From: an uncultured archaeon
GTDB lineage: Archaea > Aenigmatarchaeota > Aenigmatarchaeia > Aenigmatarchaeales > Aenigmatarchaeaceae
Length of the DNA stretch: 64,000 bases
Assembly (NCBI GenBank): GCA_964353745.1
Contig: CAYGWD010000001.1
Coordinates: 3,440 to 67,439, forward strand
Reading direction: 5' to 3'
A program made the translations under genes and the position numbers. Every line of letters starts with the position of its first letter. Within the stretch, counting starts at the first letter, position 1. Positions 27,283 to 56,438 of the stretch are shown piece after piece. The notes beneath the pieces are model-generated. The model did not search any database and was not told the origin of the DNA. It saw nothing but the letters and a program-made list of their open reading frames with translations.

Positions 27283-27939
27283 ATGAAATGCAATATTATA
27301 GCAGTTATACCAGCTTATAACGAAGGTAAGAAAATAGCGAATGTTGTCAAGGGTGCTAGAAAGTATGTTGACAAAACAATTGTTATCGATGATCATTCTT
27401 CAGACAATACTTATGAAATTGCTCGTAAGTGTGGCGCAGAAGTCATAAGGCTGGAAAAAAATAATGGAGTTGGATTCGCAACAAGAGTTGGCATAAAGAG
27501 AGCTCTATCATTAAAACCTAAGATTGTAATATTCCTTGATGGCGACGGCCAGCACGACCCAAAATACATTCCCTATTTCTTAAAGGCCATAGAGAATGGA
27601 GCTAACTATGTTTATGGTTATAGGGATTTGTCAAATTATCCGATGAGCAGAAGGTTGGGAAACTTTGGGCTCACAACCCTGATAAATCTAATATGCCGCA
27701 AAAACATAGCAGACGCAGAATGCGGCTACAGGGCCATTGATGCAGAATCTCTTAAGAAGCTGAATCTAAGGGCTAAAAGATATGAAAGAGAAATGGATTT
27801 TATTTATGAAGTCTGGAAAAACAAGTTAAAGGTCGACCATGTGAACATTATAGTTTCTACATATTATCCGAAGTATGCGGTGGTTAGGGGTTTTATGAAC
27901 TTCTTTTTCTTCATAAAGAGAAGAATAGGCAATTCATAA
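27283..27939 (+). CDS. GT2 glycosyltransferase, dolichyl-phosphate hexose synthase-like
   Basis: IAVIPAYNEG, IDDHSSDNT and FLDGDGQHDP. 218 aa, soluble DPM1/GtrB-like. Confidence 0.7.
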   Translation: MKCNIIAVIPAYNEGKKIANVVKGARKYVDKTIVIDDHSSDNTYEIARKCGAEVIRLEKNNGVGFATRVGIKRALSLKPKIVIFLDGDGQHDPKYIPYFLKAIENGANYVYGYRDLSNYPMSRRLGNFGLTTLINLICRKNIADAECGYRAIDAESLKKLNLRAKRYEREMDFIYEVWKNKLKVDHVNIIVSTYYPKYAVVRGFMNFFFFIKRRIGNS

Positions 27940-28908
27940 TTTTACAAGCCCGTAAAAGAAACCAACAAAACAAACTATTGTTCTAATAAACAAAATTATA
28001 AATGCGTAAAAGAACTGAAGTTTTTCTGTTTTAAACAGGAATCTAAAAAATTTATAATAGACAAAGTAGAACAAGATTAGACTTGCTATAGAAACATAAA
28101 GTAAATTTGAGTTAAACATGCTTAACAGTAGGGTAAGCAGAAAAATCGACATGAAGAAAGATGCCATAGGTATCTCTTTACCAGTATAGCTCTCTCCCAA
28201 GATTTTTTTCGGAAACTTTTTGTACATCAAGATTCTCCAGTAAGCTCTCCAATACTGGCTTCTAAGATATTTTTTCAGGGAATCTGGATGAGGATGCCAA
28301 ACAAACATTTTTTTATCAAGTATCAGCTTGTATTGTCTGGATATTCTAAATGATAGTTCAGGATCTTCACCAGAAGCTGTTAAGAACTTTTCATCAAAAC
28401 CACCAAACTTCAGAAATATATCTCTCTTGTAAGCACAACAATAAGTCCCTAGAAAGTCCGTGAACCTTTTCTCCTTTTCATGCCTGAATCCTATCTCATA
28501 GCCAACATACCTTGCTATCAAGCTTTCCTTATTCAATGTTCTGTAAGTTCCTCCTACGCCTGCGATATCATATTTCTTAAAATCATCTGAAACTCTCTTT
28601 AGCAAGTCTTTTGAAACAATGCAATCAGAGTCCGTGAAAAGAATTATATCTCCTCTCGCAGCCTTGGCACCAAAGTTTCTCTGTGTGGCTGGTCCCGCAT
28701 GTTTTCTGGCAAAGACTCTTACATTCTTAGTCTGTTTTAATATCTTTACCGTATTGTCCTTAGAGCCGTCGTCCACAACGATGACTTCAAATTGATTTTT
28801 AGGAAAAGCAGAGTTCAAGACAGATCTTAGAGTTTCTGCTACTGTTTTTTCTGCGTTGTACGCCGGTATAATAACAGAAATTTGCATAATTATGATTATC
28901 AAGAGCAA
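27934..28908 (-). CDS. GT2 glycosyltransferase with C-terminal TM helices
   Basis: ISVIIPAYNAEKT, VVDDGSKDNT and FTDSDC. Confidence 0.7.
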   Translation of the reverse strand: MLLIIIIMQISVIIPAYNAEKTVAETLRSVLNSAFPKNQFEVIVVDDGSKDNTVKILKQTKNVRVFARKHAGPATQRNFGAKAARGDIILFTDSDCIVSKDLLKRVSDDFKKYDIAGVGGTYRTLNKESLIARYVGYEIGFRHEKEKRFTDFLGTYCCAYKRDIFLKFGGFDEKFLTASGEDPELSFRISRQYKLILDKKMFVWHPHPDSLKKYLRSQYWRAYWRILMYKKFPKKILGESYTGKEIPMASFFMSIFLLTLLLSMFNSNLLYVSIASLILFYFVYYKFFRFLFKTEKLQFFYAFIILFIRTIVCFVGFFYGLVKL

Positions 28909-28918
28909 GATAAATAAA

Positions 28919-29947
28919 TTATGAACCCATGAAATTGTTCAAGTCATCTTTAAATTTGGCTATGATAACATCCCAGTCAAAATTCTTTCTGACGAACTCT
29001 CTTCCTCTTCTTGCCTTTTCCTTGTCAGGATTTTTCAATGCCTTTAATATCTGTTTCTTGAAAATTCCATTATCCTCTGTTGGAAAACTGTACACATAGT
29101 CTGAAAACAGGGAAATATCACCGATTGTATTGCAGATAGTTGGTATGCCTGCTGCCAAGTATTCTCTCACTTTGATAGACGATCTATATTGATTGGCAAA
29201 ATTATCCCTCAGATAGTTTACCGCAACACTAGCCTCTGATATAATTTGTGGTATGCTTTCATGCTCAACATAACCGAGAAACTCCACAGCGTTGGATATT
29301 CCCATTTCTTCAGTCAAATTTTTGAAGTATTTTAAATAAGGACCGCTACCTATAATCTGCAATTTAACATTTTTTTCTTCCTTTAGAACTTCCTTAAAGA
29401 CCTTAAAGATGACGTCCACATCCCAAGCAGCTGGGCCCAGGTATGCCGCATAAACTATCTTTTTTTGCTTTGAAGGTTTCCACTTTATGTTCTTAAACAA
29501 TGAAAAGTCTATGCCCTGAGGAAGAAATATTATCTTTTTCTCCGGTATTCTTAGATTTTTAATTATGTAACTTTTTAGATTGGGAGTGTGCGTCGTAACG
29601 ACGTTAAAAAACAAAGGGAAAATCTTGTCGTTGAGAATCATTAGGTATTTCATCAAGATTCTTAAATAGCCCTTACCCCTGTCCCAGTAACCCCATTCAA
29701 GGTCGTCTATGTCTAAAATCAGAAAATCATTTTTGAAGAATTTTCTAAACAAAGAAGGTATGCATGAACCCCATAGAGTCTTCGATGCAAAAACAACATC
29801 AGCATGAGAGAAAAACTTCTGCCTTTTCGTTTCTGCAATCTCAACCTTATAGCCTAGTTTTCTTAGAGATTTGGCTATCCCCAATAACCTCAAACCTGTC
29901 CCAGACTTGATGCTAACAGAAGGTATTATTAAAATTTTCATATCCAA
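28919..29947 (-). CDS. GT4-type (GT-B) glycosyltransferase
   Basis: C-terminal EYLAAGIPTICNTIGD block typical of GT4/GT1. Confidence 0.6.
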   Translation of the reverse strand: MDMKILIIPSVSIKSGTGLRLLGIAKSLRKLGYKVEIAETKRQKFFSHADVVFASKTLWGSCIPSLFRKFFKNDFLILDIDDLEWGYWDRGKGYLRILMKYLMILNDKIFPLFFNVVTTHTPNLKSYIIKNLRIPEKKIIFLPQGIDFSLFKNIKWKPSKQKKIVYAAYLGPAAWDVDVIFKVFKEVLKEEKNVKLQIIGSGPYLKYFKNLTEEMGISNAVEFLGYVEHESIPQIISEASVAVNYLRDNFANQYRSSIKVREYLAAGIPTICNTIGDISLFSDYVYSFPTEDNGIFKKQILKALKNPDKEKARRGREFVRKNFDWDVIIAKFKDDLNNFMGS

Positions 29948-31386
29948 CCTTCTTTTTTCCTTCTTCTGTAGGCGTTCATAAGCCTTAAAAGGTGCAAGAA
30001 CTTGTCTTTAGAGGAAAGAGCGTTTTTCAACATTAAAGAAATGTATTCTGGCCTGGTATAGTAACTTGAATAGGCTTCTTTGGCTAGCCTGTTTATTTCT
30101 TCTGCTGGAAGATGAGGCAGATTGACGCCAGCACTATAGAAGCTGTCCCTATCGCACCAATTTCCTATTAACAGCTTTCTTTTTTCAATTGTTTCGTAAT
30201 AGGGCGCTCCTGGCAATGGAGTTGCAATGGCGAATTGCGTGAACTCGCCATTCAGTTCAAAGGCAAAATCTATGGTCTTTTTAATGGTTTCTAATGTATC
30301 CCACAAGAAACCGATCATGAAACAATTATGCAAATATATTCCATACTTCCTAGCTTTCATCACGCCTTCTCTTATTTGCCTGGTCGTCATGCCTTTCTTT
30401 ATTTTTATCAGCACGTCATCATCTCCAGATTCCACACCAAACAAAATCTTTACGCATCCTGCATCGGCCATAGCCTTGCACAATTGATCGGTCATAAGAT
30501 CAGGTCTAGACTGTGGTTGCCAAGTCAGGTCCAAACCTTCTTTTTTGAAAAGCTTGCAAAGGTCAAAGACCCTTTGTTTGTTAACTTCAAACGTGTCATC
30601 ATCATATCTTATCTCTTTAACCCCAAACTCATCAACCAGGTATTTGGCTTCTTCAAAAGCCCTTTCAGCGCTCTGAGCCCTCCATAAATGAGAATAAATT
30701 GTATTTGGGAATGTACAGAATACGCATTGGGCGTAGCATCCTCTAGAAGAAATGGTGGTTGCGCAAGGTAGTCTTATGAAAACTGTTTCAACGAACTTTT
30801 TCAGGTCAATCAAATCGAAAGCAGGAAATGGCAGCCTGTCCAGATTCTTTTCAAGTTCAAAATCCTTATTCATTCTGACTTTTCTGCCTTGCTTGTAATC
30901 CAAACCCTTGACTTCGTTTAGTTTGTCTTTTCTCATACCATCCACTAGCCATGGCAGTGCATAGTCCCATTCCCTTCTTATTATAAAATCCACATTCGGA
31001 TTCTTTATAAACTGTTTATGCAGAGGAGTAGCAAACGAACCTACCCAAAGAACTTTGCTGTTAGCCTCTCTTGCCACTTTGCTCAGATATTCATCAACAT
31101 CAAGCCTTACGTGCTGAATATCGAACACAGTTAAATCTGGAGAAATCCTTCTAATCTCTTGCGCTGTTTGCGCTGTTGTTTTTCCTTCAGACTGGCTGTG
31201 CATGTAGTAGACATTGATACCATTGTTCCTTAGAATCTGAGCACCAATTAGATTGAGATAGGAATAAGTCATCTCACCCGTGACTGTCTTGGACGGATGT
31301 CTTCTGCCTCCTGTCCTCAACAACTGTTTCGGATTCCATTTAATTGCCGGTGGCGATTCTATAAACAAAACTTTCATGTTTAACAC
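29938..31386 (-). CDS. B12-binding-domain radical SAM enzyme (paralogue 1)
   Basis: Rossmann-like N-domain, then SSRGCYAQCVFC (CxxxCxxC). Confidence 0.75.
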   Translation of the reverse strand: MLNMKVLFIESPPAIKWNPKQLLRTGGRRHPSKTVTGEMTYSYLNLIGAQILRNNGINVYYMHSQSEGKTTAQTAQEIRRISPDLTVFDIQHVRLDVDEYLSKVAREANSKVLWVGSFATPLHKQFIKNPNVDFIIRREWDYALPWLVDGMRKDKLNEVKGLDYKQGRKVRMNKDFELEKNLDRLPFPAFDLIDLKKFVETVFIRLPCATTISSRGCYAQCVFCTFPNTIYSHLWRAQSAERAFEEAKYLVDEFGVKEIRYDDDTFEVNKQRVFDLCKLFKKEGLDLTWQPQSRPDLMTDQLCKAMADAGCVKILFGVESGDDDVLIKIKKGMTTRQIREGVMKARKYGIYLHNCFMIGFLWDTLETIKKTIDFAFELNGEFTQFAIATPLPGAPYYETIEKRKLLIGNWCDRDSFYSAGVNLPHLPAEEINRLAKEAYSSYYTRPEYISLMLKNALSSKDKFLHLLRLMNAYRRRKKEGWI

Positions 31387-31441: not shown

Positions 31442-33877
31442 TTATGAACTGTAATGAATTATTCTTTTTATATTTTCCAAGGAAAGATTTCTAGGTCTTA
31501 GATTTCTTAATAAATAGCTGGGTCTGAAATAAAATTCTCTATAAGCTTTTCTTTTCATTTCTAGCAATAGCTCTGGCGTCAGTTCTCCTAATTTAAACTT
31601 TTTAGGTTTATCATAATGTCCTGAGAACTTAACATTCCAATCTTCTAAAAGTTCACCTTCTCTCTTAATAAGATCATAAACTCTTGTGCCTACAAAAGGT
31701 GTTAATGTAGTAAACTGAGCAAATGTTGGGTCTAATTCTTTAGCAAAGTCTATTGTCTCTTGCATAGTTTCTCTATTTTCACCTGGAAGACCTAAAACAA
31801 AGAAGGCGGTTGACTCTATGTCAAGTTTTTTACAAAGTTCAAATGTTTTCTTAACTTTATTGAGGTCTAATCTCTTGTCAATCGTTTTCATTATGCGTTT
31901 TGAACCTGTTTCAACACCAAATGCTACTCTTATGCATCCTGCTTTTTTCATCTTCTTAAGAGTTTGATAGTTTACAAATTCTGCTCTTAAACCATTGGGA
32001 AAGAAATGCGGAAGATTTAATTTCTTTTTAAGAATAAGGTCATAAATTTTATTTACTCTTTCTAACGATAGGTTAAAAATATCATCATATATTGCAATTT
32101 CTTCTACATTTATGTCATTAATAAGCCATTCCCATTCTTTAACAACGTTTTCAGGACTTCTTGCTCTCCACATATATCCAAACAATCCTTTGAAACAATA
32201 AATACAATTGAAAGGACAACCACGACTATTTCCACTCCAAACAGATTTTCCTTTTCTTCTCACATAAATTATATGATTAGGAACTTCACAACAATAGATT
32301 TTACCAAGATAATTCTCTTTAGATGTATGTTTACGCCTGCCATGCTTATCAATATAATTAATTACTGGCATATTTTGTTTTTTATTAAAAATTATACGAT
32401 AGCAAGGGAATTGAGATTTTATTGTTTTGCCTTTAATTTTTCCTATAGAATTGTTTAGTTTATTTTTAATATTCCCACTCCAACCAACTTTTAGAAGTAT
32501 CTCTTGAATGTCGTCAATCAATTTTTTAGAAGTAGTTATATACTCAATTTCTCCAATTTTTGATATATATCCATCGCCTAAAACAAGTGCATCTAATAAA
32601 ATTTTAAGGTAATTAGTTGAAAGTTGTTTTATTTCTTTTGGAACGAATTTATCTTCAGCATGACCAAACTGTTTTAGATAGCAGCATAATTGTTTGTTTG
32701 AAATAAAAAATCCTTCTATAGGATGCTTATAGTATTTATAACCCAATTTTTTAATACAGTCTTCCATTTTTTTATAGGATTCTGTTCCGACTTTCTGCGA
32801 AATTTTAACAATCCAAGAATTATTACTTTTTTTATGTTGAACTGAACCTTCACTAAGATAATAACCTAGAAATTCTAACCATAAGCCCATTGGTATTATT
32901 TTTCCCTCTGATTTTCTAATTTTATTTATTGGGTTAAATTCATGGAGAACTTCTGGTAATATAAAATAGTCTTTTTTGTCTCCCAACCATATGGCATCTT
33001 TTTTCATCCGAAAATCATTCTTATTCATTAAAATAGAGACATCTATTAGTGTAAATTTATTTGGGCGTTTTGACCTTAATCTAACATATAGTTTGTGATT
33101 TGGCGTAACTAATAAATTGATTTGTTTACATTCTATTTTACACATATCACCATTATAGTCATAAGACATTAATTTTGATGGTTTTTGATATTCTAAATTA
33201 TGATTTTCAGGATTGAGAGTAGCTATCTCATTTTCATAGGTTAAATCTTTAAAAAGTTTCCATCCATCTTCTGTTAGAACTTCTGTTTGGTCGTCATAGC
33301 ATGTCATAATTCCAGCGCCACGTTTATGAGGATGCGGTACAAACCATGTATATTTTTCTAATGGTGGAAATAAATGATAAGCAGGGAAAGGTAAAGAATC
33401 TAAATCTTTTATAAGTGGTCTTGGTTTAGTAACTATGATTCTGTTTCCATATTTGAATGCAATACCTTTTACATTTTTTAGATTTTTTTTGTTTTCTATA
33501 TTTTTAATTAATTCAGATGTTGTAATTTCTCCTTCACCTATGACAACATAATCTATATCTGCTATTTCTAATAATTCATGGGATTGACATGTTGGATGTG
33601 GACCTCCCATCATAATCTTTATATCTGGATTATATTGTCTTGCTTTTTTTACTAATTTCAATGAGCCTGCTATGGTTAACGTCGTTGCTGTTATACCTAA
33701 AACTTCATTTTCCTTAACTGATTTTTTGAATTTTTCATCCGACTCAACATTCAAATCAACAACGGAAACTTCATGTCCATCTCTTTCTAAAACAGATGCT
33801 ATATAACCCAAACCTATATTTATAGTCTTAACTGGTTCAAAACAAGAATAATTGGGACTTACTAACAGAACTTTCAT
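31442..33877 (-). CDS. B12-binding-domain radical SAM enzyme (paralogue 2) interrupted by an intein
   Basis: The 811-aa ORF has extein ...GAGIMT | intein | SRGCPFNCIYC. The spliced product would be 453 aa with a junction IMTSRGC matching the paralogues. Confidence 0.75.
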   Translation of the reverse strand: MKVLLVSPNYSCFEPVKTINIGLGYIASVLERDGHEVSVVDLNVESDEKFKKSVKENEVLGITATTLTIAGSLKLVKKARQYNPDIKIMMGGPHPTCQSHELLEIADIDYVVIGEGEITTSELIKNIENKKNLKNVKGIAFKYGNRIIVTKPRPLIKDLDSLPFPAYHLFPPLEKYTWFVPHPHKRGAGIMTCYDDQTEVLTEDGWKLFKDLTYENEIATLNPENHNLEYQKPSKLMSYDYNGDMCKIECKQINLLVTPNHKLYVRLRSKRPNKFTLIDVSILMNKNDFRMKKDAIWLGDKKDYFILPEVLHEFNPINKIRKSEGKIIPMGLWLEFLGYYLSEGSVQHKKSNNSWIVKISQKVGTESYKKMEDCIKKLGYKYYKHPIEGFFISNKQLCCYLKQFGHAEDKFVPKEIKQLSTNYLKILLDALVLGDGYISKIGEIEYITTSKKLIDDIQEILLKVGWSGNIKNKLNNSIGKIKGKTIKSQFPCYRIIFNKKQNMPVINYIDKHGRRKHTSKENYLGKIYCCEVPNHIIYVRRKGKSVWSGNSRGCPFNCIYCFKGLFGYMWRARSPENVVKEWEWLINDINVEEIAIYDDIFNLSLERVNKIYDLILKKKLNLPHFFPNGLRAEFVNYQTLKKMKKAGCIRVAFGVETGSKRIMKTIDKRLDLNKVKKTFELCKKLDIESTAFFVLGLPGENRETMQETIDFAKELDPTFAQFTTLTPFVGTRVYDLIKREGELLEDWNVKFSGHYDKPKKFKLGELTPELLLEMKRKAYREFYFRPSYLLRNLRPRNLSLENIKRIIHYSS
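32228..33301 (-). other. intein (358 aa) with LAGLIDADG homing-endonuclease domain
   Basis: Block A CYDDQTEVLTEDGWK. Block B VTPNHKLYV. LAGLIDADG-like LGYYLSEGSV and LLDALVLGDGYI. It ends VWSGN followed by the +1 Ser. Confidence 0.7.
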
Positions 33878-33942: not shown

Positions 33943-34845
33943 TTATCTTTTCACTCTAATTTTCCAACCTTCTTTTGTTGATTTCTTATGTAACTTTCCT
34001 TTAATTACTCCGAAAAATGAAAAGAACCAATAAAGTATGACACCTAAGAATATTCCACCAGCTCTTCTTATACTATAAAACATAGCGGGTAAATAGAAAT
34101 CAAACAATCCTCCTCTGTATTCACCGTAACTTTCTTTTATCTGTCTTCTTGCTATTTCACCCCTGCTTTTTATTCTTATTAAATCTCTAGGTGTAGATGG
34201 ATATCTGCTAAGCACGGTACCAAAATGTAGAAAATCTTTAGTTGGTATCAATACTTCATATCCATTCTTTCTTAATTGTATTGATCTCTCTCCATCATCA
34301 CACAACGTGAGTTGATCACCAATGAGTGCTTTCTTTCTGAACATGTTTACAAAGAATGGATATTTATTGTCTCTAACATAGAATTTTCCATTTACATTCT
34401 TAGCGTATTTCATAATTTTGTATTCATGAAGGAATTGATTCATGAAGTTGTCTCCAACTATGAGTAACGATGCTCTTGAAGTATCTGCTGGTCTGTAATC
34501 TGCAATTCCACCAACCTTAGGATCTTTGAAATAATCTACTATTCTTTTAAAGTTTCCTGTTGGTTGCAAGAACCAGTCAGCATCATGTATCAGAATTATA
34601 TCTCCTTTAGCTTCTCTTATCAATTTAGAAAGCATTTTTGCTTTTCCTTCTCTTTCATTGTTCTTTATTATCCTAGCAAATTTAAATTTTCTAACAATAT
34701 TTTCTGTCTTATCAGTGCATCCATCAAGACCTACAAGAACTTCTAGATTAGGATACTCATGCTTTTTTATGAATCCCAATGGTTCCAAAGCATTAGCTAT
34801 TACCTTCTCTTCATTGTGCGTTGGAATAAGTACTGACACTTTCAT
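33943..34845 (-). CDS. GT2 glycosyltransferase with C-terminal TM helices
   Basis: VSVLIPTHNEEK, VGLDGCTDKT and IHDADW. Confidence 0.7.
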   Translation of the reverse strand: MKVSVLIPTHNEEKVIANALEPLGFIKKHEYPNLEVLVGLDGCTDKTENIVRKFKFARIIKNNEREGKAKMLSKLIREAKGDIILIHDADWFLQPTGNFKRIVDYFKDPKVGGIADYRPADTSRASLLIVGDNFMNQFLHEYKIMKYAKNVNGKFYVRDNKYPFFVNMFRKKALIGDQLTLCDDGERSIQLRKNGYEVLIPTKDFLHFGTVLSRYPSTPRDLIRIKSRGEIARRQIKESYGEYRGGLFDFYLPAMFYSIRRAGGIFLGVILYWFFSFFGVIKGKLHKKSTKEGWKIRVKR

Positions 34846-47544: not shown

Positions 47545-49047
47545 TTAAGTTCCTGGAACAAATACGTGATCTTGATTTCTTTTTTTAAGGAGAACCTTAA
47601 CTTTTTTAATTGTATAAAAAAATCCCTTCCCTTTTAAATATCTAAACGCACGCGATGGAGATTTGAAATAATTTTTAAATGCACTGAATGTCCATTCTTT
47701 TTGCATTTTTATTGATATAGCTTCTATTTCTTCTTTTTTCAACCAAGGATAACTTACAGGAGATGAGAAAGAACCATCATACTCAGTCCAATCCTTAGCT
47801 ACCAACCAACCATTTTTTTTTGCCTGATAATAGAAAGGTGTTCCTGGAAGCGGTTGAGCAGTATATATCTGAGCAGAGTCTAGGTCTAGATCTATCATTA
47901 ATTTTAATGTTCTTTCAAGGCTCTCTTTGTTATCCTGAGGCAAACCTACTATGAAATCCCCATGCGTATAAACTCCATATTTCTTACACATTTTAACAAA
48001 TTTTCTAACCTTTTCTTCACTCACCCATGCTTTATTTATATTTTTAAGAGTTTCAGGATTGGTACTTTCAACACCAAATTTCAGGCCTATAGCACCAGCT
48101 TTGACGAGAAGTTTCATAAGTTTTTCATCAATGTGAATAGACCCCATAAAGGCCCAAGGAATTTTTAATTTTCTTTTTAATATTTCATTGGCAAAATCTA
48201 CCATTCTTTCTCTATCGAAAGTCATTATATCGTCATCAAAATATATTTGTTTAGCCCCATGTTTTTCTTTAACATATTCCATTTCATCAACAATATTTTT
48301 TACTGACCTCTTCCAGTAAAATCCTGAAGGCCAAAATACTCTAACATTACAATAAGAACACATGAAAGGACAACTTCTTGAAGTTACTATATGAATTGTC
48401 GGTTTTCCTGCAATCTCAAAATCATGATAATGTTCACATGGTAAATCTTCTCTATCAGGATAAGGTAAAGAATCGAAATTTACAAATTCCATTTTAGCTT
48501 TGGATTTTTTTATTGCTCTTCCTTTACGATAATATAAATTATATACTTTATTTACGCTACCATTAGTTTCTATAAACTTTAATAAAGGTAGTCCGTAATC
48601 GCCTTTAATAACATAATCGATAAAACTATATTTTTTCATGACTTCGACTGGCAGACCAGAAGCATGTAAGCCTGTAATAATTAAAGTAAATTTTGATTTC
48701 TTTTTTAATTCTCTTAAAATATCCATACAAAGAGAAAAAGATATTGTAGGTAATTCAACAACCATCAGACCAGGTTTAAAATCTTTAACTGCTTTTATGA
48801 AATCTTCTTCGTTGTAATCTCTTGCTTGGGCGTCTATTGCTTTTATAGTTTCCTTGGTGTCCCTTTTTAAGATAGCAGAAGCATAACCTAAAGACCATGG
48901 ATATGGCGTGTAATGATCTTTTACCTTGGTTGCATTTTTTCCTCCAAGAGAATATGGTATACGCATAGTACAACCAAATCTTCCATAAGAAAAATGTCTA
49001 TTCATATCCTTTATGTATGCCGGACTGTTTGTAAGCAATATTCTCAT
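47545..49047 (-). CDS. B12-binding-domain radical SAM enzyme (paralogue 6)
   Basis: VTSRSCPFMCSYC. Confidence 0.75.
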   Translation of the reverse strand: MRILLTNSPAYIKDMNRHFSYGRFGCTMRIPYSLGGKNATKVKDHYTPYPWSLGYASAILKRDTKETIKAIDAQARDYNEEDFIKAVKDFKPGLMVVELPTISFSLCMDILRELKKKSKFTLIITGLHASGLPVEVMKKYSFIDYVIKGDYGLPLLKFIETNGSVNKVYNLYYRKGRAIKKSKAKMEFVNFDSLPYPDREDLPCEHYHDFEIAGKPTIHIVTSRSCPFMCSYCNVRVFWPSGFYWKRSVKNIVDEMEYVKEKHGAKQIYFDDDIMTFDRERMVDFANEILKRKLKIPWAFMGSIHIDEKLMKLLVKAGAIGLKFGVESTNPETLKNINKAWVSEEKVRKFVKMCKKYGVYTHGDFIVGLPQDNKESLERTLKLMIDLDLDSAQIYTAQPLPGTPFYYQAKKNGWLVAKDWTEYDGSFSSPVSYPWLKKEEIEAISIKMQKEWTFSAFKNYFKSPSRAFRYLKGKGFFYTIKKVKVLLKKRNQDHVFVPGT

Positions 49048-49067: not shown

Positions 49068-49763
49068 TTATTTAATTGCATATAAAAGCAATGACCTTCC
49101 TAAGCTTTGAAAACCAAAAATGCCGAATAAAAAATTATAAGGTAATCCGACCGGAGCGAATCTTATTTTTTTAAACCCTATATTTGAAATTAAGTATTTT
49201 AACTTTGGCTTTGTAAACCAATGTAAATGTTCTACCTCATCTCCATACTTTTCCCAATGCAAAATATCTATGGGGTCACCTTTTAGCATTTTTATTCTAT
49301 TTGAAAATCTAGCAAAGTTAGGAATATAAATTATAACTCTTCCGCCTCTTTTTAATAATCTATGTGCTTCTTTTAGAATTGATACTGGATCTATTAAATG
49401 TTCCAATATGTCGGCAAATACGGCTACATCAAAACTTTCTTTTCTTAGCGGTAATGGAACTTTGTTCAAATCCCACTCTATGGTTTTTATACCTTTCTTT
49501 TGCACACTCGATAAAGCAACTTTAGATACATCAATACCGGTAACTTCACAGTTTTTCTCCAAAAAAAGTGAAGCTACGGTTCCATCACCGCATCCAAAAT
49601 CTAAAACCTTTGAATTTTGCGGGATTAAGTTAGCTATTGCTCCATTATTAGAATATTTTATTAATAATTTTGGGACCGATGGATTAATGGGCGGTACTTG
49701 AGTTTTTATTCTCTTCTTCCAGTATTTTTCATAATATTTATTTAAAGTTTGTATATATACCAC
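49068..49763 (-). CDS. class I SAM-dependent methyltransferase
   Basis: VLDFGCGDGTV. Confidence 0.65.
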   Translation of the reverse strand: MVYIQTLNKYYEKYWKKRIKTQVPPINPSVPKLLIKYSNNGAIANLIPQNSKVLDFGCGDGTVASLFLEKNCEVTGIDVSKVALSSVQKKGIKTIEWDLNKVPLPLRKESFDVAVFADILEHLIDPVSILKEAHRLLKRGGRVIIYIPNFARFSNRIKMLKGDPIDILHWEKYGDEVEHLHWFTKPKLKYLISNIGFKKIRFAPVGLPYNFLFGIFGFQSLGRSLLLYAIK

Positions 49764-49827: not shown

Positions 49828-50532
49828 TTAATTTTTCACCCTGCAAACTATGAAAAATAAGTTATTATAGTCTTTGTCGAAATTAAGTTTTTTTATGTCT
49901 TTAATATTAACATTTTTAATGTTTTTATCCAGATAATCTTCCATAACAAAATAAGGCACAAATCCGCCTAAGAGGTGTATAATCTCCAATCTCATCACAA
50001 GTTTAGGGTTTATACCATCACCTAATCCTCTAAACTCTACTATCTCAAAATACTTTTCCAGCTCTTTCCTAATTTCTTTTTCTATGAACTCATGCTTGTG
50101 GAATATCGGAGTCCTGTTCAGACATCTTAATGTCGCCTCATGATCAGGGGTAGTCAATATTAATAATCCATCGTCTTTGAGCATTCTTCTGGCATTTTTA
50201 ATATATGTTCTATAGTCATCTAGATGTTCTATAACCTCAAAAGATAACACGACATCGAACTTGTCTTTTGATTTGAAAGAGCATGCGTCTGCCACTTTGA
50301 ATATTGCTTTCTCAGACGCAAAATGAGAATTTGCATATCTTATTAATTTTTCATTGATATCGATGCCTGTATAACTTTTTATGCCATTATTAACTAAGAA
50401 ATAACCGCTTTGCCCTAGACCGCAACCCATGTCCAATATAGTTTTGCCTTCGCAAAGTTTGCTTATATGCTTGAAATTCCTCAAGCTGTCAACTAGATTG
50501 TTTGAAATCATCATGTTTTCTATTTCATTCAC
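49828..50532 (-). CDS. class I SAM-dependent methyltransferase
   Basis: ILDMGCGLGQSG. Confidence 0.65.
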   Translation of the reverse strand: MNEIENMMISNNLVDSLRNFKHISKLCEGKTILDMGCGLGQSGYFLVNNGIKSYTGIDINEKLIRYANSHFASEKAIFKVADACSFKSKDKFDVVLSFEVIEHLDDYRTYIKNARRMLKDDGLLILTTPDHEATLRCLNRTPIFHKHEFIEKEIRKELEKYFEIVEFRGLGDGINPKLVMRLEIIHLLGGFVPYFVMEDYLDKNIKNVNIKDIKKLNFDKDYNNLFFIVCRVKN

Positions 50533-50652: not shown

Positions 50653-52122
50653 TTAGAGTACTTTAAGTACTGCATTGTCTTGATTCTGATAAACTATGCT
50701 AAAGCTATTGTTAGCATTTAATGTTGTTTTAACAAATTGATAGCTAAAGACTGCAGCTAAGTTTGCATGCGGCACAATATAACTCTCTGAAACAACACCA
50801 CTCCATATAACTATGTAAGAAACATTGTATTTCTTTAATATGCTATTAATATACGTAGCATTATCTGTAGTCATTATCTTATCGAATTCCACAATTTGTG
50901 TCCATATATCTTTCCTGTCGGCATAGTTTCTTAAACTACCGCTATAAGTTGTGAACACTGATGCATCTTTCGGTGTATTACTCTTTACCCATTCCAGTGC
51001 TTGTACATAGCTCTGCGGAAATCTTACAGATTCAGAGGTTGCTAATCCAATGGATATACTTGAATAAAACGCAAAAATCACAATCGGCACTAATAAAATC
51101 ATTAAATATTTATTTTTTTCTTTAAGCTTATACAAGAAATAACCTCCCATCAAAGCTAACTGAGGAAACACTATCATAAGATATCTATCTTCTGCAATCA
51201 CTTTCCCTAAGCTGTACAATGTTAAAAACATCGCTAAAAATATAAGAAACAATAATGCTGACAATTCTATTGATTTAGGGTTCTGTCTTCTATCAAAAAA
51301 TATGTAAAGTGAACCGAATATGCCAACAACTAATGGTATCCACCCAAAAGCTGATATAAAGTAATCAAGAGTCAAGAGCGGTGATGTAATTGATGAGCCC
51401 GGCCCTATCCAACCTGCAGCATAAGATGTTGTAGGAACTAACATGTCAATAACTATAAAATGCGGGTAATTGAAAATCAATGTATTTCTTACTATATAAG
51501 GCATTATAACTATAATTGAAATTCCTAAAGCCAAAAGTGCCAATTTGAATTGTTGCTTATCTTTCTTAAAAATGTAAAGACATGCCGAATAAAATGCAAA
51601 AATCATAATAATGTAGAAAGTGCTAACTTTTGCAAAATAAGATATACCTATCATAGAGCCTAGCACAATTGACTTTTTCTTGGAATCTATGTTTACAGCC
51701 ATATATGTGAGTAAAGCTGAGAAGAAGGCAGTCGGCACATCAACATATGCTAACAATGACATACTAGTAAAGATCGGTATTAAAAGAAGAATTGCCACAG
51801 AGAATATCCCAACATAGATGTTTATTTTCTTACCAATAAGATAGACTAGCACCAATGTTAAAAAACCAAAAATTGCTGTAATCATTTTTGCTATTGAAAG
51901 TGATGTACCGAATATTAAAAATAAAATACTATAAAGAAGTGGTATAAATGGTGGATCTAAAGTCGGTACAAGGATAAGTTTAGCTAATTGCTCGCCTGAA
52001 TAAATATACCCTGCTTCGTCCTCACCAAGAAATGCAGTTTTAGAGGCTAGATGCATATCGAAAATTCCAAGCACTGTAATTATCAATAAAAATGCAAGTT
52101 CTATTTTTTTATTTTTATTCAT
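50653..52122 (-). CDS. GT-C fold membrane glycosyltransferase (ArnT/PMT_2-like), second copy
   Basis: EDEAGYIYSGEQL loop motif. More than 10 TM helices. Confidence 0.55.
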   Translation of the reverse strand: MNKNKKIELAFLLIITVLGIFDMHLASKTAFLGEDEAGYIYSGEQLAKLILVPTLDPPFIPLLYSILFLIFGTSLSIAKMITAIFGFLTLVLVYLIGKKINIYVGIFSVAILLLIPIFTSMSLLAYVDVPTAFFSALLTYMAVNIDSKKKSIVLGSMIGISYFAKVSTFYIIMIFAFYSACLYIFKKDKQQFKLALLALGISIIVIMPYIVRNTLIFNYPHFIVIDMLVPTTSYAAGWIGPGSSITSPLLTLDYFISAFGWIPLVVGIFGSLYIFFDRRQNPKSIELSALLFLIFLAMFLTLYSLGKVIAEDRYLMIVFPQLALMGGYFLYKLKEKNKYLMILLVPIVIFAFYSSISIGLATSESVRFPQSYVQALEWVKSNTPKDASVFTTYSGSLRNYADRKDIWTQIVEFDKIMTTDNATYINSILKKYNVSYIVIWSGVVSESYIVPHANLAAVFSYQFVKTTLNANNSFSIVYQNQDNAVLKVL

Positions 52123-52169: not shown

Positions 52170-53582
52170 TCATGAAAAATAGTCTAAAAATGATTTGAAG
52201 CCGAACAACTTCCTTTTAATGTCGGAAACACTTCTTATGTTTGTTATCATCCTAAATATTTGATTTGGTCTCAGATAAAACTCCTTGAGAGCCTTGTCTA
52301 TGTAATGATCAATCTCCTTCTTTGAGAATTGCGGATAGTTTAATATGGTAACCTGTTCCTTTTCAGGGGAGACCCATTCTGTCCAGTCTTTGGGAACCAA
52401 GTAGCCATTTTGTTTTGCCCACTCATATATTGGCGTGCCGGGATAAGCTGTTATGCCACTAAACTGGGCAGTATCCAGAGGCAAGCTCTTGGCAAAATCG
52501 ATAGTCTTCTGTGCTTCCTTTGGGGTCTCGCCTGGGAATCCGAACATGAAACAGCCATGAAGTATGAAACCTAATTTATGTGCAGCTTTGCTAAATCTTT
52601 TACTTTGCTCGATTGTCACTCTTTTACAAACTGCATCCAAGCACCTCTGATTTCCACTTTCATACCCGATCATCAACATTCTGCAACCCGCTTTCTTCAT
52701 TATAGGCAGCAATGATAAATCAATGTCAACCCTTACGTTACAACTCCACTTTATATTAAGTTTTCTCCTTTTCAGCTCATTGCAAAATTCTTTAACGTGC
52801 TTTGGGGATGCTGTGAAAGTGTCTGTCTCAATCATGAACTCTTGAATTTGCGGAAAGAGTTGCAGGTCATACTCGATTTCGTCAACAATGCTTTCTGCAG
52901 ACCTGGGCCTGAAAATTCTTTTGAACAGTAAAGGGGTGCTGACGCAAAATGTACAATAATTAGGACAACCTCTGCCAGTTATCAGAGTTATGAACGGATA
53001 CAATTTTCCAGGGTCTGGATAATCTTCTATTTTAATGTGATGCCATGCAGGAAAAGGCAATTCGTCTACGTTCTGTATAGGCGGTCTTGATTTGTTCCTG
53101 TATATTTTATTATTTTTTCTGTAAGCAATGCCTAAAATTTTATTAATGGCTTTTTTATTTGCCAAGTCACGCAAGGTGTAATCGAATTCGCCGTAAGCTA
53201 CAACATCTATTAGTCTGTCTATCTTTAACGACTCTTCGGGCAAAGCAGAAACGTGAGGACCAATCAAAACAGTCATTATCTTTTTGTTCTTTTCCTTAAT
53301 CAATCTACCATGGTGTATGTCGCTATATATCGACGGCGTGGTGCAATAAATAACAACCATCTCTGGATTGAAATCCAGAACTCGCTTTACCAAAGCTTTT
53401 TCATGGATGTCGTGAGTGGTGGCATCAATGAACTGCACCTCATGCCCGTCCATTTCAAGAACAGCAACAGCAGTAAGGAAATATTCCGGATGTCTGAAAC
53501 ATCTACTACGGCTCTTGGTATACCAGCGAGCAGACTTTGAAAAATCCTTGCCATAGCTTGGAATTATAGCCGAGACTCTCAT
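52170..53582 (-). CDS. B12-binding-domain radical SAM enzyme (paralogue 7)
   Basis: ITGRGCPNYCTFC. Confidence 0.75.
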   Translation of the reverse strand: MRVSAIIPSYGKDFSKSARWYTKSRSRCFRHPEYFLTAVAVLEMDGHEVQFIDATTHDIHEKALVKRVLDFNPEMVVIYCTTPSIYSDIHHGRLIKEKNKKIMTVLIGPHVSALPEESLKIDRLIDVVAYGEFDYTLRDLANKKAINKILGIAYRKNNKIYRNKSRPPIQNVDELPFPAWHHIKIEDYPDPGKLYPFITLITGRGCPNYCTFCVSTPLLFKRIFRPRSAESIVDEIEYDLQLFPQIQEFMIETDTFTASPKHVKEFCNELKRRKLNIKWSCNVRVDIDLSLLPIMKKAGCRMLMIGYESGNQRCLDAVCKRVTIEQSKRFSKAAHKLGFILHGCFMFGFPGETPKEAQKTIDFAKSLPLDTAQFSGITAYPGTPIYEWAKQNGYLVPKDWTEWVSPEKEQVTILNYPQFSKKEIDHYIDKALKEFYLRPNQIFRMITNIRSVSDIKRKLFGFKSFLDYFS

Positions 53583-53635
53583 TTTATCTACACCTTAGAT
53601 TATAATATCAGGATTATTTATTTAAATTAGAAATT

Positions 53636-54679
53636 CTAGACGTGTTCCAATACCCTCTTAAGGCCTTCGTCTATCTTTATTGTGGGTTCGTACCCGAGCA
53701 ATTTCTTGGCCTTTTCTATATTGGGGCATCTTCTTTTCGGATCGTCTTTTATGTTATAATGAGCTGGCTGTGAGTTGATCTTGATTTCTGATCTAGAACC
53801 TGTAGTTTTTATTATTTTCTTGGCCAAGTCTAGAATTGTAATTTCTTTGTCATTCCCTATGTTTATTATTTCCCCATCTAAGCCATCAGTTAAAAGTAAT
53901 TTAAATAAACCAATCATGGTGTCCACGACATAGCAAAAGCTTCTGGTTTGTTTTCCATCCCCAAATATAGTTATAGGCTCGTTAGCTTTGGCCTGTCTGA
54001 CAAAATTAATCAGCGCCCTACCATAAGTCGTTGCCAAGCCTGAGTCAAGCCGATCCCCAAAAGTATTGAATATCCTAGCTATTCTTACCGGCACTCCATG
54101 CTTTTTCCAATAATAATAGGTGTATGTTTCTGCAACCCTCTTTCCCTCGTCATACATGGCTCTTGAACTGGTGGTGTGTATTATGCCGTGAAACGTCTCT
54201 GGTGTCGGTATCACATCGTCTGGCGGATTGCCGTATATCTCGCTCGTGCTCGTCAAAAGAAAGCCTTTAATTTTATTTTTAATTCCCAATTCTAACATCT
54301 TCTTTGTCGCTATGACAGAAGAGTCCAATGTTTCTATGGGATGCTCAAAATAAACCATCGGCGATGCTATGCATGCCATATGTATGATGTAATCAATCTT
54401 CTCGTCGGCGTTGTAGTTCAAGATGTCGTCCTGCACGAACTTGAAGTTCTTTTTGCTCAATAGGTGGCCTATGTTTTCTTTGGTTCCCACAATTAGGTTG
54501 TCGACACAGATTATGTCAGCGCCAAACTCATTCAACACGTCGCAGAACCAGCTTCCCAAAAAACCTGCTCCGCCTGTCACAAGGAACGTGTGCCCTCTTA
54601 TCTTGTCTTCAAACTCGCTCAAGTTATCAACAATCTCTTTCAAGTCTTTTTTTATTCTTTCATTAATCATGTCAATCAA
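53636..54679 (-). CDS. UDP-glucuronate decarboxylase-like extended SDR (UXS/ArnA-C type)
   Basis: FLVTGGAGFLGS and the UXS-like catalytic block MYDEGKRVAE. Confidence 0.6.
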   Translation of the reverse strand: MIDMINERIKKDLKEIVDNLSEFEDKIRGHTFLVTGGAGFLGSWFCDVLNEFGADIICVDNLIVGTKENIGHLLSKKNFKFVQDDILNYNADEKIDYIIHMACIASPMVYFEHPIETLDSSVIATKKMLELGIKNKIKGFLLTSTSEIYGNPPDDVIPTPETFHGIIHTTSSRAMYDEGKRVAETYTYYYWKKHGVPVRIARIFNTFGDRLDSGLATTYGRALINFVRQAKANEPITIFGDGKQTRSFCYVVDTMIGLFKLLLTDGLDGEIINIGNDKEITILDLAKKIIKTTGSRSEIKINSQPAHYNIKDDPKRRCPNIEKAKKLLGYEPTIKIDEGLKRVLEHV

Positions 54680-55527
54680 TCTCTAAACACTTCGTGGCTC
54701 TTCTCTAAAGCTATCTTATAGCTCTCTGGTTTTCCAATATCTATTCTGACTTCATTTTCTCCTATTTCTTTTGCATAAACATCGTGATTATTATTTATCA
54801 TTTCCTGTATGGCGTCTGTTAGTTGCTTTTCCTGGTTGACCCCAAGGGAGATTTTCTCTATTGCATTGAATATTTCAGGACTAAAAATATATATGCCAAC
54901 TGCTGTCAAGTTTGAAAGCGGCATCTTGGGTTTCTCAATTATATTTGTTACCTTATACAGGTCTGTACCAATGAGATTGCCTACAATGACTCCGAATCTT
55001 TCAGGATTGGGAACTTTTTCAGCAGAAAGAACAGCCTTAGCGTTGAATTTCTCAAAAGTGAGTATGATATCTTTAATAAAACTATAATTAGGAGAGTGAA
55101 TGTAATCGTCGCCTGCCCATACTATGAAGTTGTCAGAACCAACAAAGGATTTAGCCCTGTAGACAGCGTCCCCAAAACCAATCGGATATGGCTGGTTCTT
55201 CCAGATAATCTCTGAATTTTCTAGCATGTTATAGAACTTTTCCAAATGCTTTGCGGCATTGTTGTTTTTGCTCTTTAAATATTGTAGGTAAGCTATGTCG
55301 GGTGTGAAGTGATCCTCTATGCTTCTCTTGCCTCTGCCTACGATAAAGCAGAATTCTCTGATTCCTATGTTATAGAGCTGTTCAAAAGAAACTTGAAGCA
55401 ATGGTTTAACTAGAACCTCGTCGCCTTCCCTATAAAATATGGGAAGCATCTCTCTAGGAAATTCTTTTGTGTAAGGCAAAAATCTTGTTCCCAAACCTCC
55501 TGCTGTTATTACCGCTTTTTTTATCAT
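54676..55527 (-). CDS. galU: UTP-glucose-1-phosphate uridylyltransferase-like sugar nucleotidyltransferase
   Basis: KAVITAGGLGTRFLPYTKEFPREMLPI. Confidence 0.7.
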   Translation of the reverse strand: MIKKAVITAGGLGTRFLPYTKEFPREMLPIFYREGDEVLVKPLLQVSFEQLYNIGIREFCFIVGRGKRSIEDHFTPDIAYLQYLKSKNNNAAKHLEKFYNMLENSEIIWKNQPYPIGFGDAVYRAKSFVGSDNFIVWAGDDYIHSPNYSFIKDIILTFEKFNAKAVLSAEKVPNPERFGVIVGNLIGTDLYKVTNIIEKPKMPLSNLTAVGIYIFSPEIFNAIEKISLGVNQEKQLTDAIQEMINNNHDVYAKEIGENEVRIDIGKPESYKIALEKSHEVFRD

Positions 55528-56438
55528 TCTCTGACACCATATTTTTTCTTCATAATTTCATTAACATGCTCTATAGCCTTGAGGAAAACAGGGTCATGAT
55601 CAAGATTTTTTTCCACATGCCTTATCATTGCTCTCAAATCCTTGGGAAAGCATTTGCCACCGAAAGCCTTGCCACAAACAGTTCCATACTTTCCTATTCT
55701 CTTGTCCAGACCAACTATGTCAGCGACTTTTTGCCCGTCTATTCCCATTTTTTCACATATCTGATATAGTTCATTGAAATATGATATTGAAGCTGCTAGA
55801 CGAAGATTGTTAGCATATTTTATTATCTCTGCTGTCTTATAATCTGTTCTTATAATCGGTGAGTTCAAGTGCTTTAACAAATTTTCAACTTCATCCCCGA
55901 ATTTCTTATTGCTGCCTTCTCCTATGACTATCTTGTCCTCTGTTTTGAAGTCTCTCTTGAATTCTGGGTCGTCAGTCCAGCTGTGAGCTATCTCTGTCAG
56001 GAATTCTGGCATAAATATTACACCGAAATCAATGTTGGCTTTCTTTCTCGAATGCTTTTCTAAGTTAGGTATTATAATAGACTCCGTGGTTCCTGGAACC
56101 ATTGTTGACTTGAAAACAAAAACATGAGATTTGCCCTTCTTGGATAGAACCTTGGACAAATCCTCTGACACCTTTTCTATAAAACTCAAATCAATGCCTT
56201 CCTCGGTTGAAGGTGTAGGAACTGCTATAAAGGAAATGTCAGTATTATTTAATGCATATTCCAAATTGTCTGTGGCATCAAATCCTTCAGATTTTATTTT
56301 TTCAACAGTGCTCTTGTTGATATCATAGAAAATTACTTTATTGCTTTCCAAAAACCCTTTTCCTACTATTTGACCAACGACCCCAGAACCGATTATGCTA
56401 ATTCTTTTCATTTCACTACCTTTCATTAAATAAGTCAA
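55524..56438 (-). CDS. UDP-glucose/GDP-mannose dehydrogenase family protein, short form lacking C-terminal UDP-binding domain
   Basis: N-terminal ISIIGSGVVGQ. Catalytic-Cys motif GGKCFPKDL. The ORF ends about 40 aa after it (304 aa versus the typical 430 or so). Confidence 0.6.
   Translation of the reverse strand: MTYLMKGSEMKRISIIGSGVVGQIVGKGFLESNKVIFYDINKSTVEKIKSEGFDATDNLEYALNNTDISFIAVPTPSTEEGIDLSFIEKVSEDLSKVLSKKGKSHVFVFKSTMVPGTTESIIIPNLEKHSRKKANIDFGVIFMPEFLTEIAHSWTDDPEFKRDFKTEDKIVIGEGSNKKFGDEVENLLKHLNSPIIRTDYKTAEIIKYANNLRLAASISYFNELYQICEKMGIDGQKVADIVGLDKRIGKYGTVCGKAFGGKCFPKDLRAMIRHVEKNLDHDPVFLKAIEHVNEIMKKKYGVRE

Follow-up and report, generated by a model that had tools for sequence, protein, structure and literature searches.

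A sequence-only reading of a 64,000-nucleotide stretch of DNA from an uncultured archaeon (contig CAYGWD010000001.1; the whole stretch is called the window below) had singled out positions 27283–56438 as a surface-glycan cluster organised around radical S-adenosylmethionine (SAM) enzymes (rSAMs). From the analysis reported here, this segment is, on balance, probably the N-glycosylation (agl) island of an Aenigmatarchaeota-like DPANN archaeon, rich in radical SAM enzymes. Domains were called by scoring the products of the open reading frames (ORFs) of the window against Pfam and NCBIfam profiles, with gathering scores or curated cut-offs as thresholds. The 24 ORFs that had been described as nearly all co-directional were recovered by the ORF map at identical coordinates, with 22 on the minus strand; several overlap at start and stop by 4–10 bases, and others abut directly. 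The genes of the segment, and the flanking genes that bear on the argument, are as follows (aa, amino acids; TM, transmembrane; GT, glycosyltransferase; SDR, short-chain dehydrogenase/reductase; UGDH, UDP-glucose dehydrogenase).

20983–23748, minus strand: sequon-rich surface (S-layer-like) protein, presumed N-glycosylation target (921 aa), outside 27283–56438
23948–25108, plus strand: flippase-like membrane protein (Polysacc_synt, AglR-like; PF01943, 43.5 bits; 9 TM-like segments)
25164–27254, plus strand: AglB oligosaccharyltransferase (STT3; PF02516, 60.3 bits)
27283–27939, plus strand: short soluble GT2 of the AglJ / polyprenyl-phosphate-sugar synthase type (PF00535)
27934–28908, minus strand: membrane-anchored GT2 (PF00535, 119.7 bits; C-terminal TM-like segments)
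28919–29947, minus strand: GT4 glycosyltransferase (PF00534, 61.3 bits)
29938–31386, minus strand: rSAM of group I (HpnJ-like) with a degenerate N-terminal domain (PF04055, 72.8 bits; PF02310, 25.8 bits; HpnJ model, 229 bits; CxxxCxxC at aa 225)
31442–33877, minus strand: rSAM of group II with an intein and a 453-aa extein (PF02310, 82.6 bits; PF04055, 83.8 bits; LAGLIDADG_3, 41.4 bits)
32228–33301, minus strand: intein with LAGLIDADG homing endonuclease (aa 193–550 of 31442–33877)
33943–34845, minus strand: GT2 (PF00535, 75.2 bits)
34859–36322, minus strand: polytopic membrane protein, probably GT-C (10 predicted TM segments; LA_3751/3752 family, 44.4 bits)
36423–37952, minus strand: rSAM of group III (PF04055, 96.5 bits; PF02310, 50.9 bits)
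37953–39353, minus strand: rSAM of group II, the commonest type near aglB in relatives (PF02310, 99 bits; PF04055, 96.6 bits)
39423–40433, plus strand: UbiA-family prenyltransferase of the polyprenyl-phosphate phosphoribosyltransferase type (PF01040, 83.5 bits)
40556–41653, minus strand: SDR epimerase/dehydratase (PF01370, 140.9 bits)
41650–42777, minus strand: SDR epimerase/dehydratase (PF01370, 172.9 bits)
42774–43736, minus strand: GT2 (PF00535, 102.6 bits)
43737–45257, minus strand: rSAM of group III (PF04055, 93 bits; PF02310, 41.4 bits)
45315–46250, minus strand: GT2 with C-terminal TM segments (PF00535, 81.3 bits)
46281–47309, minus strand: SPASM-domain radical SAM protein, the eighth rSAM (PF13186, 55.8 bits; CxxxCxxC at aa 71)
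47545–49047, minus strand: rSAM of group I (HpnJ-like) with a degenerate N-terminal domain (PF04055, 76.8 bits; PF02310, 27.6 bits; HpnJ model, 204 bits)
49068–49763, minus strand: class I SAM methyltransferase (PF13489, PF08241)
49828–50532, minus strand: class I SAM methyltransferase (PF08241, PF13847)
50653–52122, minus strand: GT-C glycosyltransferase (PMT_2 / ArnT-like; PF13231, 37.2 bits; 12 TM-like segments)
52170–53582, minus strand: rSAM of group I, closest to HpnJ and first gene of the right conserved flank (HpnJ model, 380 bits)
53636–54679, minus strand: SDR (UDP-xylose synthase / ArnA / 4,6-dehydratase-like; PF01370, 143.8 bits)
54676–55527, minus strand: GalU-like sugar-1-phosphate nucleotidyltransferase (PF00483; TIGR01099 galU, 192 bits, below cut-off)
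55524–56438, minus strand: short UGDH-family protein without the C-terminal UDP-binding domain (PF00984 and PF03721 only; 304 aa)
56512–57300, plus strand: second nucleotidyltransferase, in the right conserved flank (PF00483, 71.1 bits; 92–97% identical in relatives)

Pfam bore out the presence of five GT2 and one GT4 enzymes, three SDRs, two class I methyltransferases, the UbiA protein and the SPASM rSAM, and the GalU-like and UGDH-family assignments stood as well (an NTP_transferase domain with GalU as best NCBIfam match, and UGDH domains, respectively). For the two proteins proposed as ArnT/PMT-like GT-C enzymes, the assignment was upheld for 50653–52122, which matches Pfam PMT_2, but not in the same way for 34859–36322, which has no Pfam match; the latter has a weak NCBIfam match to the LA_3751/3752 family and is 24% identical over 379 aa to 50653–52122. 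The best NCBIfam matches of the GT2 at 27283–27939 are AglJ (93.9 bits) and PpgS (70.6 bits), and that of the UbiA-family protein is decaprenyl-phosphate phosphoribosyltransferase (89.9 bits), in each case below cut-off; matches to the AglJ, AglG, AglF, AglM and Agl16 models all fall below their cut-offs. The UGDH-family protein covers profile positions 58–299 of 413. The same short form (295–301 aa) is conserved in related loci L001, L022, L023 and L024, while the enzyme of the bacterial cluster L105 is complete at 430 aa. Because relatives conserve the short form, 55524–56438 is not a pseudogene, and its product may not be a canonical UDP-glucose dehydrogenase.

The cluster had been said to adjoin aglB and a sequon-saturated protein, and all the parts were found: the PF02516 gene, the flippase-like gene and the 921-aa protein. 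The latter contains 62 N-X-S/T sequons where its composition would predict 26, corresponding to 6.7 per 100 aa compared with 0.42 in the other proteins examined. It has a signal-like segment at the N-terminus, a TM segment at the C-terminus and no Pfam match, and its homologues lie upstream of the flippase and aglB genes in relatives. For analysis of the wider context, 80 metagenome loci with AglB relatives at 41–92% identity were collected and the window proteins were mapped onto each. The order flippase, aglB, AglJ-like GT2 was nearly invariant among them. Counting of rSAMs within 10 kb downstream of aglB was restricted to the 37 loci with at least 8 kb of downstream sequence, whereby at least one B12-domain rSAM was seen in 28 (14 with one, 11 with two and 3 with three); 37953–39353 is the best-matching paralogue for 27 of these 45 downstream rSAMs. 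The order flippase, aglB, GT2, followed by further GT2 and rSAM genes, is kept in loci where AglB is only 41–60% identical, and one Aenigmatarchaeota metagenome-assembled genome (MAG) carries a large surface protein, flippase, STT3 and GT2 and then three consecutive rSAMs. On the strength of the 28 loci and of the order in this MAG, the link between rSAMs and aglB is a property of the lineage; with synteny conserved in this way, the proposal of a surface-glycan cluster tied to aglB holds.

Comparison with the closest relatives divides the island into conserved flanks and a variable core. Relatives match the window DNA at 84–94% up to about 28.9 kb and again from about 52.1 kb on, the left flank ending with the GT2 at 27934–28908 and the right flank starting with the rSAM at 52170–53582. 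The roughly 23 kb between (28.9–52.1 kb) are unique to the window, which shares nothing with the relatives there beyond scattered DNA matches at 64–70%. GC content in the core is 0.28–0.36, compared with 0.35–0.40 in most of the remaining window, and no tRNA genes were found at the island borders. Locus L024 fills the core with a GT2 and four more rSAMs, then heptose-pathway-like genes, and has five consecutive rSAMs; L022 fills it with SDRs, a GT-C, a methyltransferase, a GT2 and two rSAMs. On the right flank, rSAM 52170–53582 is conserved at 90–92%, in one block with the SDR, GalU-like and UGDH-like genes, in L001, L022, L023 and L024, the SDR (53636–54679) being 92–97% identical in L001, L022 and L024. 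In loci L025–L027 the flippase is 97–99% identical, AglB 92, 83 and 72% identical and the next GT2 58–60% identical. This constancy of the flippase while AglB identity falls suggests recombination breakpoints in or near aglB, and the variable island seems to have its edge inside aglB. Taken on these alignments, the locus is a predicted O-antigen-type island, in which the rSAMs are exchanged between strains along with the glycosyltransferases.

Seven of the proteins had been described as B12-binding rSAMs. All seven match PF04055 at 72.8–96.6 bits (gathering score 29.5), whereas PF02310 passes its gathering score of 32.1 in only five (41.4–99 bits), with 25.8 bits for 29938–31386 and 27.6 bits for 47545–49047. 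The possibility that some paralogues lack a usable CxxxCxxC motif had been raised; the motif is intact in all seven, as is the GxE(S/T)G SAM-binding motif, and since both are kept the seven look like working enzymes. The (S/T)SRGC sequence reported for all of them is exact in five and reads TSRSC in 47545–49047 and TGRGC in 52170–53582. The eighth, SPASM-domain protein scores 29.3 bits with PF04055, just under the 29.5 cut-off, and 55.8 bits with PF13186; CxxxCxxC is present, and no NCBIfam model matches it at its cut-off. The rSAMs are without TM segments and predicted to be soluble, while GT2 proteins of the island have C-terminal TM segments and the GT-C proteins 10–12 segments.

Grouping of the rSAMs was based on an alignment and a neighbour-joining tree that included one true HpnJ, with NCBIfam profile scores used alongside. 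Group I comprises 52170–53582, 29938–31386 and 47545–49047, which have in common with HpnJ an Arg-rich N-terminal segment; group II comprises 37953–39353 and the extein of 31442–33877; and group III comprises 36423–37952 and 43737–45257. The view of the seven as a recent paralogue expansion had to be given up: apart from the group III pair at 57%, pairwise identities are 22–39%, values that rule out recent tandem duplication and mark three deeply diverged subfamilies.

The best NCBIfam model is HpnJ (TIGR03471, cut-off 577.6 bits) for four of the rSAMs, at 380.3, 229, 204 and 197 bits, and BchE (TIGR02026, cut-off 481 bits) for the other three, at 215.7 (37953–39353), 157 and 151 bits; these three score 146–210 bits on the HpnJ model. 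Orthology to HpnJ or BchE was rejected, the scores being far below the cut-offs. A score of 843 bits is reached by a genuine HpnJ whose gene adjoins hpnI on a replicon of Paraburkholderia, and which has 33% identity to 52170–53582. The alignment of 52170–53582 with the HpnJ model spans the whole model. Hopanoid genes (hpnI, hpnK, hpnH, shc) were not found in the window, and the partner GT2 has no HpnI match. A bacterial homologue with 54% identity carries the database label ‘HpnJ’, which is an over-call at 321.6 bits. By sequence, AprD4 is the nearest solved structure for both proteins tested (52170–53582 and 37953–39353). An AlphaFold2 model of 52170–53582 (pLDDT 90.8), which has a two-domain fold, likewise gave AprD4 as best fold match (TM-score 0.76–0.79, about 468 aligned columns), followed by MgmA, TsrM, OxsB, CysS and TokK. 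Identity to AprD4 is 19–20% in the Foldseek alignment, the phmmer match covers the rSAM core only, and the NCBIfam AprD4 model scores 63–126 bits across the rSAMs against a cut-off of 500 bits.

These relationships bear on the chemistry that had been guessed, namely C-methylation or cross-linking by analogy with HpnP, GenK and Fom3. The guess was not borne out, since the nearest characterised relatives are HpnJ and AprD4, neither of which is a methylase. With the label of class-B rSAM, cobalamin dependence had been assumed. No sequence motif is diagnostic of it, and both AprD4 and ArsL have the same architecture and bind no cobalamin, AprD4 in spite of a Rossmann-like N-terminal domain (PMC12931638). 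Cobalamin use by the window rSAMs therefore cannot be assumed. HpnJ, Fom3 and MoeK5 co-cluster in a published similarity network (PMC9204698). The nearest characterised relatives of the window rSAMs act on sugars, in the case of HpnJ on a lipid-anchored sugar. A lipid-linked sugar is also what MoeK5 methylates.

One rSAM carries an intein, which had been overlooked. Residues 193–550 of the 811-aa product of 31442–33877 start with Cys, hold a TPNH block and end with Asn before a +1 Ser; the element is inserted between the T and the SRGC of the Fe–S cluster loop (junctions ...GAGIMT/CYDDQ...WSGN/SRGCPFNC, the slashes marking the splice points), and excision restores the T-SRGC-x3-C-x2-C loop of the paralogues. 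The intein is 358 aa long, which accounts for the unusual length of the protein, and leaves a 453-aa extein that is 39% identical to 37953–39353. Scored alone, it matches LAGLIDADG_3 at 44.3 bits, above the gathering score, and Intein_splicing at only 18.5 bits, where the gathering score is 35.8; the residue before its terminal Asn is Gly (a Gly-Asn end) instead of His, and it has no sequence match in the PDB. A dip in GC content to 0.28 at 32–34 kb spans the intein-carrying gene. A relative's orthologue of 52170–53582 (P0003, at L001 10001–12385) contains a different intein, located before the third Cys of CxxxCxxC, so that two independent intein sites lie within about 10 residues of the Fe–S motif.

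The rSAM families extend well beyond the lineage. The best named relatives of rSAM 52170–53582 are from Candidatus Aenigmatarchaeota MAGs (76–77% identity), which are the basis of the taxonomic placement; other metagenome homologues reach 86–91%, and proteins 100% identical to 37953–39353 and 43737–45257 are present in public data (P0121, P0241), while an assembly index yielded no exact match to 52170–53582. The 52170 family gave 2,963 database matches at E ≤ 1e-10, with 70% mean column identity in the alignment, and its bacterial members (Elusimicrobia, Nitrospirota, Deltaproteobacteria, Planctomycetes and others) are 50–60% identical. Group II has more than 5,500 matches, in DPANN, Asgard and bacterial MAGs, and group III has 765; among the sources, no functional name was attached to a member of either. 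A 27934-type GT2 is encoded within about 2 kb of a 52170-type rSAM in four Aenigmatarchaeota loci and in 9 of 11 more distant ones (loci L002–L014 in this count, L002 and L003 being the same contig and one distant locus being from Methanosarcinales).

In one Elusimicrobia and one Deltaproteobacteria genome the module consists of a GtrB-like GT2, DUF2304, a 52170-type rSAM, a 29938-type rSAM, a GT4 and a 27934-type GT2. Methyltransferases lie nearby in both bacterial loci, and the one from Elusimicrobia further encodes SDRs, a PMT_2 GT-C and a UGDH of full length. Across the bacterial clusters, Lawsonia included, the companions of the 52170-type rSAM comprise a GT-C or a DUF2142 protein. The order 29938-type rSAM, GT4, 27934-type GT2 is common to the window and bacterial loci L105 and L108; in the window, the two ends of the GT2–rSAM module stand on opposite sides of the variable core. 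The cassettes of GT2 plus rSAM that had been pointed out are thus real as an arrangement but not unique to the window, being lineage-wide, with a core module widespread in bacteria. A related cluster occurs on plasmid 1 of Lawsonia intracellularis (L111; NC_008012, 8112–25497), with a GT2, two DUF2304 proteins, a SIS protein, two rSAMs at 16055–17518 and 13950–15080, six methyltransferases and HAD and GHMP-kinase genes (a heptose-like pathway); its HpnJ-like rSAM is 35% identical to 52170–53582. This plasmid cluster is a tractable place for studying the function of the HpnJ-like family.

Set beside described systems, the frame of the island is recognisable. As in the Agl cluster of Haloferax volcanii (aglB-aglJ-aglG/I/E-aglM-aglF-aglP-aglR-aglS), AglB stands beside a flippase-like protein, an AglJ-like GT2 and more GT2 and GT4 enzymes, with UGDH-like (AglM-like), GalU-like (AglF-like) and SAM methyltransferase (AglP-like) genes, an AglS-type GT-C and a sequon-rich surface protein. 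Unlike Agl pathways, the window has eight radical SAM enzymes. Described archaeal N-glycan pathways employ glycosyltransferases, SDRs, aminotransferases and ordinary methyltransferases, and we know of no Agl pathway that contains radical SAM enzymes. Literature searches, which covered full texts with few subscription journals, returned no paper that links radical SAM enzymes to AglB, to the N-glycans of archaea or to glycosylation in DPANN, and nothing relevant on radical SAM enzymes with O-antigen or Aenigmarchaeota, which is absence of evidence only. To that extent the pathway is, as had been suspected, without a description in the searchable literature.

Among other known systems, HpnI–HpnJ(–HpnK) offers a GT2 beside a B12-domain rSAM, an Arg-rich N-terminal segment shared between HpnJ and 52170–53582, and a lipid-anchored sugar as substrate; the window differs in the 33% identity to true HpnJ, a partner GT2 that is not HpnI-like, an archaeal host and the lack of a deacetylase or any hopanoid gene. 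AprD4/AprD3, the rSAM 1,2-diol dehydratase and reductase of apramycin C3′-deoxygenation, is comparable in acting on a sugar, and SDR genes lie beside the window rSAMs; AprD4 binds no cobalamin, whereas five window N-terminal domains pass the Pfam B12-binding threshold. The cobalamin-dependent sugar C-methylases GenK, GenD1, MoeK5 and Fms7 share the domain architecture, and MoeK5 also the network cluster of HpnJ; they serve antibiotic pathways, not protein glycosylation. O-antigen and capsule loci have the same conserved flanks and low-GC, strain-specific core full of glycosyltransferases and tailoring enzymes, whereas here an archaeal host, a frame set by aglB and radical SAM proteins as the exchanged tailoring enzymes make the difference. 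The novelty lies in radical SAM enzymes being the main tailoring function, and an exchangeable one, of an N-glycosylation island whose frame is recognisably of Agl type. The genomic pattern is solid and widespread.

A mechanism can be proposed in which the GalU-like, UGDH-like and SDR enzymes would supply nucleotide sugars, and the AglJ-like GT2 with the other GT2 and GT4 enzymes would assemble, at the cytoplasmic face, a glycan linked to dolichyl phosphate. The seven rSAMs of class-B architecture and the SPASM rSAM would tailor single sugars of this lipid-linked intermediate by hydrogen-atom abstraction, candidate reactions being ring contraction to a carbocycle (HpnJ-like), 1,2-diol dehydration/deoxygenation with a neighbouring SDR (AprD4/AprD3-like) and C-methylation (MoeK5/GenK-like). 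The flippase and AglB would then deliver the glycan to Asn sequons of the surface protein, and the two GT-C enzymes may add sugars extracellularly from polyprenyl-phosphate-sugar donors made by the AglJ-like GT2 and, possibly, the UbiA enzyme. Exchange of glycosyltransferase-plus-rSAM cassettes between strains would diversify the surface glycan. This overall model, an agl island with rSAM tailoring of a lipid-linked glycan, is the one we favour, with confidence somewhat above even.

Several points weigh against it. Adjacency to aglB does not by itself prove that the product is an N-glycan, and no initiating phosphoglycosyltransferase was found in the cluster; the product is taken to be an Asn-linked glycan of the 20983–23748 protein from the 62 sequons of that protein, its sole and indirect support. 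The rSAM chemistry is entirely inferred. None of the seven rSAMs reaches an NCBIfam equivalog cut-off, and their chemistry is for that reason not transferable by homology. Two of the N-terminal domains fall under the Pfam threshold, and AprD4, the best structural match, is cobalamin-free. The HpnJ reaction itself, conversion of bacteriohopanetetrol glucosamine to a cyclitol by contraction of its glucosamine ring, is a proposal based on a knockout only (PMC13459092). Finally, the block of 52170–53582 with SDR, GalU-like and UGDH-like genes fits a nucleotide-sugar substrate equally well.

This last point leads to the main alternative, in which soluble nucleotide sugars are the rSAM substrates and are modified ahead of transfer, giving branched, deoxy or carbocyclic nucleoside diphosphate-sugar donors for the glycosyltransferases. 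We regard it as unlikely but serious. The 90–92% conservation of 52170–53582 as a block with nucleotide-sugar genes speaks for it, as do the predicted solubility of all the rSAMs and the example of AprD4, which takes a soluble pseudo-oligosaccharide and works with a reductase. The invariant Arg-rich N-terminal motif of the 52170 family could bind a diphosphate; the motif is shared, however, by HpnJ, which acts on a phosphate-free substrate. Across wider phylogenetic distance it is the membrane GT2, not the nucleotide-sugar genes, that stays as neighbour of the rSAM, and HpnJ, like MoeK5, acts on a lipid-anchored sugar.

It is rather less probable that the cluster makes another surface polymer (lipoglycan, glycolipid, exopolysaccharide or O-linked glycan) and merely sits beside aglB, with the GT-C proteins as final transferases. 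Bacterial modules without AglB but with GT-C, GtrB-like GT2 and DUF2304 have such a self-sufficient, Gtr/Arn-type look, and the window encodes a pair of GT-C proteins as well as a phosphoribosyltransferase-type UbiA enzyme. Weighing the other way, the order flippase, aglB, GT2 is retained even at AglB identities of 41–60%; AglB diverges (92, 83, 72%) while the flippase remains at 97–99%, as expected if AglB co-evolves with a variable glycan; and the 62-sequon protein lies directly upstream.

Modification of isoprenoid lipids (the dolichol carrier or membrane ether lipids), in the manner of GrsA/B, Tes, glycerol dialkyl glycerol tetraether (GDGT) methylases or ladderane-type enzymes, is improbable. 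Several archaeal lipid modifications are rSAM-dependent (PMC13459092), a UbiA prenyltransferase lies within the cluster, and the seven rSAMs score 62–162 bits against TIGR04072, ‘lipid biosynthesis B12-binding/radical SAM protein’; these scores are, however, far under the 360-bit cut-off and under those for HpnJ or BchE. In every genome examined the neighbours are glycosyltransferases and sugar-nucleotide enzymes, not lipid-synthesis genes, and the number and type of rSAMs vary by strain, as expected for glycan tailoring as opposed to core lipid chemistry. A known GDGT or other lipid-modification locus was discarded as an identity for the cluster, with no such annotation in relatives and every examined context being glycan-related. 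The chance that the rSAMs are peptide or protein maturases (C-methylases or cross-linkers of the type that modifies ribosomally synthesized and post-translationally modified peptides, RiPPs), acting on a surface protein or a small precursor peptide, is slight, since, despite the SPASM rSAM, whose class is often peptide-acting, and scores of 69–190 bits with NCBIfam RiPP models (ApyD, rSAM_ocin_1), these scores lie below the cut-offs and below those for HpnJ or BchE, no precursor-peptide, protease or exporter genes were found in the cluster, and the conserved partner is a GT2.

Profile searches of the remaining window returned archaeal housekeeping genes, among which a few features stand out. 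A 1008-aa subtilase with a C-terminal dockerin (16632–19658, minus strand) adjoins a 203-aa cohesin-domain protein (16030–16641, minus strand); this cohesin–dockerin pair beside the S-layer-like glycoprotein suggests a protease that may be tethered to the cell surface. A free-standing 419-aa LAGLIDADG_3 ORF (13795–15054, plus strand), the second gene of homing-endonuclease type in the window, lies between a beta-CASP RNase gene and RtcA. A 265-aa ORF with an in-window start (63090–63887, minus strand) matches no more than the C-terminal portion of family B DNA polymerase (profile positions 264–451 of 453), so that polB would be either split or interrupted near the window end. A 388-aa membrane-type GT2 (Glyco_trans_2_3 / GT21-like; 3729–4895, plus strand) is placed among the housekeeping genes, 20 kb from the island.

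Eight radical SAM genes of a genome-reduced archaeon are concentrated in a single glycan island here, a pattern that recurs in its relatives, where the sets differ. This rSAM load points to sugar chemistries, and possibly to a demand for scavenged cobalamin, that are relevant to the cell surface of episymbiotic DPANN. The locus also opens access to a large part of the class-B radical SAM network without assigned function, and the HpnJ-like family, which reaches into thousands of glycan clusters in bacteria, offers through the plasmid of Lawsonia intracellularis, a cultured pathogen, an experimentally reachable route to the HpnJ-type reaction. More tentatively, and as a possibility that we hold short of probable, the three HpnJ/AprD4-like rSAM subfamilies may be a general toolkit for rewriting sugar carbon skeletons on lipid-linked precursors, exchanged as cassettes in DPANN and with the module also present in thousands of bacterial genomes. 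If so, carbocycle formation, deoxygenation and C-branching would be among its reactions, DPANN N-glycans would be hypervariable and radically tailored, and the bacterial modules (Elusimicrobia, Nitrospirota, Desulfobacterota, Lawsonia) would give glycan modifications new to glycochemistry.

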